Positions 45,953 through 46,217 of a stretch of 64,000 bases of DNA are shown here, one piece after another. The DNA lies in NCBI RefSeq assembly GCF_053078305.1, contig NZ_CP166879.1; one strand, written 5' to 3'. The translations under genes and the position numbers were made by a program. The notes under the pieces were generated by a model that worked only from the letters and a program-made list of their open reading frames with translations, was not told where the DNA came from and searched no databases. Within the stretch, counting starts at the first letter, position 1; each line of letters opens with the position of its first letter.

Positions 45953-46037
45953 GGTGGGGTTCCCGAGCGGCCAAAGGGAGCAGACTGTAAATCTGCCGTC
46001 ATCGACTTCGAAGGTTCGAATCCTTCCCCCACCACCA
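45953..46037 (+). tRNA. tyrT: tRNA-Tyr (GUA anticodon), single copy
   Basis: Exact 85-nt match to E. coli tRNA-Tyr sequence GGTGGGGTTCCCGAGCGG...CCACCA as recalled. Confidence 0.95.
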
Positions 46038-46217
46038 TCACTTTCAAAAGTCCCTGAACTCTCAAACGAATCCGTAATTAAATATTCTGCCCAAGCGGGG
46101 AAGGATGAGAAGCTTCGACCAAGGTTCGACTTGAGCGCCAGCCAGAGAGCGTTGCCGCAGGCAACGACCCGAAGGGCGAAGCGCGCAGCGCTGAGTAATC
46201 CTTCCCCCACCACCATC
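46038..46217 (+). repeat. rtT-type repeat unit ending in a copy of the tRNA-Tyr 3' end
   Basis: TCCTTCCCCCACCACCA recurs at 46199..46215 about 165 bp after the tRNA; only one unit present. Confidence 0.55.

Follow-up and report, generated by a model that had tools for sequence, protein, structure and literature searches.

The window analyzed here is a 64,000-nucleotide (nt) stretch of contig NZ_CP166879.1 (assembly GCF_053078305.1). It is ordinary E. coli/Shigella chromosome, whose gene content includes the trp leader, opp, adhE, hns, purU, the nar operon, cha, and ldr/rdl. Open reading frames (ORFs) and the syntenic annotation of eight compared genomes placed the tyrT locus between purU and narI, with transcription directed toward narI (Table 1). 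ARAGORN detected a single tRNA gene in the whole window, a plus-strand tRNA-Tyr with the anticodon GTA, and the call was supported by Rfam (53.4 bits). The 85 nt of this gene are an exact string match to both K-12 copies, tyrT and tyrV. No second tandem tRNA gene was found in the 64 kb with ARAGORN, and the linker is absent. The initial annotation had described the locus as one tRNA-Tyr gene with one rtT-type unit in a purU-narI interval of about 600 bp. The first statement was borne out by ARAGORN (one tRNA) and Rfam (one RtT RNA), and the second by the ORF coordinates, which give 605 bp from the purU stop (45793) to the narI stop (46399).

The 159-bp spacer between purU and the tRNA gene (45794 to 45952) was 100% identical to that of K-12 (159/159 nt). 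A promoter scan of this spacer returned 10/12 matches plus a TG ahead of the -10 hexamer, and we take this promoter to be the stringently controlled tyrT promoter. At the other end of the locus, a terminator scan detected no plus-strand intrinsic terminator 3' of the RtT unit, consistent with the known Rho-dependent termination of the operon. The copy number of the REP-type palindrome that follows the RtT unit differs among strains. Strain 23CRST011 contains an additional 46-bp REP copy (compared with 46252 to 46340 of the window), which brings its purU-narI interval to 651 bp, while the architecture is still that of one tRNA gene and one RtT unit.

Table 1. Features of the purU-narI interval and its flanks in the window
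Feature	Position	Strand	Evidence
purU (formyltetrahydrofolate deformylase), upstream flank	44951..45793	+	280-aa ORF; syntenic gene annotated purU in W619, XH990, and others
tyrT promoter: -35 TTTACA, 16-nt spacer, -10 TATGAT, then G+C-rich discriminator GCGCCCCGC	45875..45902	+	Promoter scan
tRNA-Tyr(GTA), 85 nt, CCA end encoded	45953..46037	+	ARAGORN, Rfam, exact match to K-12 tyrT/tyrV
RtT repeat unit, 178 bp	46038..46215	+	Rfam RF00391 match at 46084-46215; module decomposition
Truncated tpr-like ORF, 9 codons then TGA	46105..46134	+	Comparison of units
Exact 19-nt tRNA 3'-end copy AATCCTTCCCCCACCACCA, closes the RtT unit	46197..46215	+	Repeat search; pairs with GGGGAAGGAT at 46097-46106
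REP-type palindrome of the tail that separates the RtT unit from narI	46274..46318		Inverted repeat
narI intrinsic terminator	46359..46380	-	Terminator scan
narI (nitrate reductase gamma subunit), downstream flank, convergent with the tyrT operon	46399..47076	-	225-aa ORF; annotated narI in syntenic loci

RtT RNA is encoded by a repeat unit of the operon, as Bösl and Kersten (1991) are cited in PMC3318445. The single RtT RNA (RF00391) of the window reached 130.5 bits (E = 3.8e-28), where the gathering score is 45, and the match spans the full model (positions 1 to 130), closing helix included. This helix, formed by AATCCTTCCCCCACCACCA and GGGGAAGGAT, was seen in the Rfam alignment and in the MFE fold. 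The MFE of the RtT fold was not better than that of shuffled sequences (z = -0.94). The RtT structure is supported by the Rfam covariance score; thermodynamics alone gives no support. Matches to STnc100 (17.6 bits) and tmRNA (10.9 bits), which Rfam also returned near the locus, were far under their gathering scores and were dismissed.

The closing strand AATCCTTCCCCCACCACCA is present exactly twice in the 64-kb window (0.01 expected by chance), once within the tRNA gene at 46019 to 46037 and once at the end of the RtT unit, with the starts of the two copies 178 bp apart. A 17-bp tRNA 3' fragment had been annotated at 46199 to 46215; the copy is real but was given too short, the exact match being 19 nt and beginning at 46197. 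These 19 nt are tRNA sequence, and the match reaches 21 nt with the TC that follows CCA at both sites. Over its whole length, the window unit has one difference from the O157:H7 distal unit and six from the K-12 distal unit. Position 46143 is C in the window and G in all other compared RtT units (the K-12 units, W619, XH990, W2-5, and 23CRST011), and the one base pair that involves this C, within a small hairpin, is marked as non-standard in the cmscan alignment. The 5' half of the RtT closing stem, GGGGAAGGATGAGAAGCTTCGA (46097 to 46118), is 86% complementary over 22 nt to positions 46008 to 46029 of the tRNA, which comprise the T-arm and the 3' part of the acceptor stem; this is in addition to its 10-nt partner at the unit end. 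In the precursor, GGGGAAGGATGAGAAGCTTCGA could pair either with the tRNA or with the unit-end partner. The interior sequence CTTCGACCAAGGTTCGA of the unit resembles a decayed tRNA T-arm.

The full 29-codon ORF of the protamine-like tpr is absent from the window, where a TGA occupies codon 10 (46132 to 46134). Of the compared units, K-12 unit R2 and strain 401651 alone retain the complete 29-aa tpr ORF. Such limited retention of the ORF argues against Tpr as a conserved protein, as far as this comparison of unit sequences goes.

In K-12, tyrT and tyrV are transcribed from one promoter, that of tyrT, and the third tRNA-Tyr gene is tyrU (PMC2887954). Cutting several tyrT loci after each copy of the 19-mer yielded four modules: T (the tRNA gene, 85 bp), s (the 34-bp linker TCTCAAGCATTACCTCAAAATTTGAATTACCCCT before the second tRNA gene), R (the 178-bp unit), and R' (a divergent unit of 175 bp). 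In this notation, K-12 is T-R'-s-T-R-R-R, with three 178-bp units distal to the second tRNA gene, REL606 is T-R'-s-T-R, and O157:H7 ATCC 35150 is T-R'-s-T-R-R. Strains W2-5 and XH990 are T-s-T-R, CUVET19-970 is T-s-T with RtT absent, and the window is T-R. The earlier description of K-12 as two tandem tRNA-Tyr genes followed by repeat units was right about the number of genes but not about their order, since the divergent 175-bp unit and the 34-bp linker lie between them. In E. coli CUVET19-970 (extracted locus 1460 to 1663), two tRNA-Tyr genes and zero RtT units occupy an interval of 546 bp; this T-s-T allele shows that some natural isolates can dispense with RtT.

Comparison with close relatives shows how much the window has lost. 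Several genomes of the complete E. coli collection, to which the window itself does not belong, were 99.6 to 99.7% identical to it over 25 kb, and the nearest of them (99.7%) have two tRNA genes. Among the best local matches, which were 99.5% identical over 2.6 kb, most were 119 bp longer (T-s-T-R) and a few were of the same length. Over 3 kb, the aligned sequences of the window and XH990 (T-s-T-R) differed by 15 SNPs and a 119-bp gap, which was the only indel. When W619 (T-R) was included in the alignment, 15 substitutions were private to the window, and the window SNPs relative to the W619/XH990 haplotype were clustered at 46108 to 46696 and 47423 to 47504. As judged from these alignments, the one-RtT state is the norm of the window's clade and no contraction, and only one 119-bp period (T plus s) is lost compared with the clade. 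The contraction by repeat recombination that the initial annotation had proposed thus fits in direction and mechanism, but its scale was overstated: the nearest relatives are T-s-T-R, with a single 119-bp difference. The contraction looks larger than it is because K-12 was taken as the reference.

The same kind of difference was found elsewhere in the species. In each of three genome pairs, approximately 2.7 to 3 kb of sequence were the same apart from one indel, whose length was exactly that of a tRNA-to-tRNA period. Between W619 and XH990, the 119-bp indel (T-R versus T-s-T-R) is the sole difference across 3 kb. The O157:H7 strains F6294 and ATCC 35150 differ by a 294-bp indel (T-R-R versus T-R'-s-T-R-R), with no mismatch in 2.7 kb. 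In the third pair, the E. coli B derivative AS19-RrmA- and REL606, a 294-bp indel with no mismatch separates T-R from T-R'-s-T-R, and the 294-bp deletion in AS19-RrmA- yields the same T-R form as in the window. The short T-R-R form is common to at least 16 O157:H7 genomes. Exact one-period indels on otherwise identical sequence are the signature of homologous exchange or slippage between the identical 85-bp genes.

The frequency of the T-R arrangement was estimated with a 563-nt query (150 nt upstream, T, R, and 150 nt of tail) at an E limit of 1e-235, which passes only full-length single matches. Of 5,426 complete E. coli genomes, at least 128 gave such a match. The 60 T-R matches listed each consisted of one piece with a single tRNA-Tyr and a single RtT annotated, and were 96.1 to 99.5% identical to the query, a spread that points to many backgrounds. 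For the second-tRNA junction, a 119-nt query (linker plus tRNA) at E <= 1e-42 gave 4,831 of the 5,426 complete genomes (89%), leaving approximately 11% without it. Both counts are approximate, as the BLAST E-value cut-offs were chosen to split full-length from partial matches; strict E-value counting was used since neighboring BLAST pieces get joined, which spoils coverage statistics.

A flanks-only query was additionally used to survey the interval in 60 genomes taken at even steps along the ranked matches, with architectures read from interval length and RtT count. The shortest interval, 546 bp, was T-s-T (1/60), followed by T-s-T-R at 724 to 725 bp (9/60), two RtT units at 901 to 904 bp (13/60), and three at 1077 to 1081 bp (7/60). 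The K-12 type, at 1255 to 1261 bp, accounted for 14 of the 60 genomes. Five RtT units were assigned to intervals of 1430 bp (2/60) and 1529 bp (1/60), and in the remaining 13 the flanks were more than 1.7 kb apart, corresponding to a split locus. Across E. coli, the number of RtT units ranges from 0 to at least 5. T-R and T-T-R, with 19 loci each, were the commonest forms in 73 loci from Enterobacterales species representatives; these counts, too, are approximate, being based on exact matches with contig-edge loci left out. T-R is an ordinary minority allele of E. coli, of an already known kind, at a well-studied locus that is unstable by nature. A full-text literature search, with classical papers outside its reach, retrieved no paper on natural variation of tyrT/tyrV/rtT copy number.

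Very probably, the window carries an intact minimal tyrT allele that arose when a two-gene ancestor lost one period between its tandem tRNA genes. Like the nearest relatives, this ancestor would have had the order tRNA, 34-bp linker, tRNA, RtT. Exactly one repeat period would have been lost through homologous recombination or replication slippage between the two 85-bp tandem tRNA genes, which are identical, leaving the promoter, one tRNA-Tyr gene, and one RtT unit. At the level of sequence, the anatomy of the allele is clear, the difference amounts to exactly one period, it recurs in several backgrounds, and the two-gene form is old; the molecular route would be either RecA-dependent unequal exchange or slippage. 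As the nearest relatives over 25 kb are two-gene, the deletion would be recent or private to the window.

An assembly artifact would look the same as a recent or private deletion, and a collapsed assembly is one alternative. The real locus would then be a two-gene T-s-T-R, in which the assembler skipped the 119-bp loop arising from the 85-bp exact repeat. The closest complete genomes do carry the two-gene form, and the missing segment is exactly one period, as expected from an assembly-graph loop with k below 85. Nonetheless, the T-R arrangement is found in at least 128 genomes labeled complete, and short forms are shared by related genomes, as in the O157:H7 group with its analogous T-R-R. 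Allele pairs one period apart were found in three backgrounds, namely W619/XH990, O157:H7, and E. coli B. Furthermore, a tandem repeat longer than that of tyrT, ldr/rdl (535-bp period, with 216 nt at 98% identity), is resolved in the same window, and an 85-bp repeat is below ordinary read lengths. With the T-R genomes, the one-period pairs, and the resolved ldr/rdl repeat, a collapse is unnecessary, and we regard it as unlikely.

The direction of change can be judged from the linker. A linker of 34 to 36 nt before the second tRNA gene is kept across many enterobacterial genera, and its motif ACCTCAAAATTTGAATTACCCCT was found in E. albertii, Enterobacter, Citrobacter, Klebsiella, Raoultella, and others. 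Together with T-T-R, T-R heads the list of architectures in the Enterobacterales species representatives, and one could suppose that it is the original state in the window lineage and that two-gene forms are later duplications. Against this, the linker is absent from T-R and its conservation from E. albertii to Raoultella means that it predates E. coli; a duplication starting from T-R could not have restored it, which argues that the single-gene alleles are derived deletions. Moreover, 89% of the E. coli genomes have the linker and second tRNA, and the occurrence of T-R and T-s-T-R on an otherwise identical 3-kb haplotype indicates a recent change. An ancestral T-R is highly improbable on these grounds. 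Another source of the allele would be gene conversion or horizontal replacement, with the purU-narI interval imported whole from a T-R donor. E. coli core genes recombine often, and the 15 SNPs that separate the window from the W619/XH990 haplotype lie in two clusters. No closer T-R donor haplotype was found, though, the best local matches being 99.5% identical for T-R and T-s-T-R alike, and an import merely shifts the deletion event to another strain. To this scenario we give hardly any credence.

In K-12, a promoter-driven tyrT precursor is processed to mature tRNA-Tyr and released RtT RNA, with Rho-dependent termination. By analogy, the operon of the window would still work in the same way. 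Transcription from its promoter would run through leader, tRNA, and RtT unit and end Rho-dependently, and each such precursor would be processed to mature tRNA-Tyr and a single RtT RNA. Compared with K-12, half the tRNA-Tyr gene dosage from the tyrT locus would be expected, as well as one RtT RNA from every transcript, and Tpr would not be encoded. The strain probably has one tRNA-Tyr gene fewer than K-12, in a locus that is intact and appears functional. The importance of this is small beyond annotation. There, K-12 proves to be a poor reference, as purU-narI intervals in complete E. coli genomes start at 546 bp and exceed 1,400 bp, with island-bearing forms besides, and a one-period difference at tyrT is by itself no ground for calling a misassembly.

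We also considered whether the copy number of tRNA-Tyr and RtT at tyrT is a selected, rapidly switching dosage polymorphism and not neutral repeat instability. This reading is based on the approximately 11% of complete E. coli genomes without the second gene and on the range of RtT unit numbers, and we consider it quite improbable. If true, dosage might tune tolerance to toxins or defense systems that attack tRNA-Tyr, or it might tune an RtT-dependent effect on the stringent response; the single-gene allele of the window would then be one adaptive state.

Further variable elements were observed in and around this region. The long direct repeat ldr/rdl at 62108 to 63161 of the window consists of two tandem units with a 535-bp period, and contains rdlD matches at 62346 to 62411 and 62881 to 62946. 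Three Ldr toxins are annotated in REL606 and one in W619, so that ldr/rdl, like tyrT, is a tandem repeat of the window whose copy number varies. In ST131-type genomes (strain 4433), a seven-gene lipid-type cluster is located between a single tRNA-Tyr gene and narI, beginning 16 nt after the tRNA (7245 to 14126 and 229 to 7253 of two extracted loci). Its genes encode a fatty acid desaturase, a sterol desaturase, a PAP2 phosphatase, an F390 synthetase-related protein, an MBL hydrolase, an epimerase, and a KAS III-like protein. Neither an integrase nor an RtT unit is present at this split tyrT locus of strain 4433. In some other genomes, an IS4-family transposase lies within purU-narI, and the interval spans approximately 4,044 bp.

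The locus can be compared with several known systems. With the K-12 tyrT operon (tyrT, tyrV, rttR/RtT RNA, tpr), the window shares the purU-narI site, the promoter and leader, the tRNA sequence, and the 178-bp type of RtT unit with a 19-nt tRNA 3' copy at its end. K-12 has two tRNA genes and four RtT units, of which the divergent one lies between the genes and three are distal; the window has one gene and one unit. It also differs from K-12 in the absence of the 34-bp linker and in its tpr ORF, which is cut to nine codons by the TGA. The T-s-T-R relatives, such as XH990 and W2-5, are closer: the flanks, the single RtT unit (2 differences in 178 nt), and the tail are the same, whereas the relatives add a second tRNA-Tyr gene and the 34-bp linker preceding it, which makes them 119 bp longer. 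The RtT unit itself agrees with RF00391 in its full-length match and in a closing helix made by the tRNA 3' copy, and departs from the family in the one non-standard pair made by C46143.

The proposed event is known from classical su3/supF genetics. Unequal recombination of tandem tRNA-Tyr genes reportedly gave rise to single-gene ("singlet") derivatives in the work of Russell et al. in 1970 and of Egan and Landy in 1978. In the singlets as in the window, one tRNA-to-tRNA period is gone and one tRNA is followed by repeat units, and an event of this type is likewise seen between AS19 and REL606 and within O157:H7. The singlets are said to be laboratory or transducing-phage derivatives of K-12, with a period of 294 bp and 3.14 units. 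In contrast, the window carries a natural allele in which a 119-bp period is lost compared with the nearest relatives and only one unit follows the tRNA.
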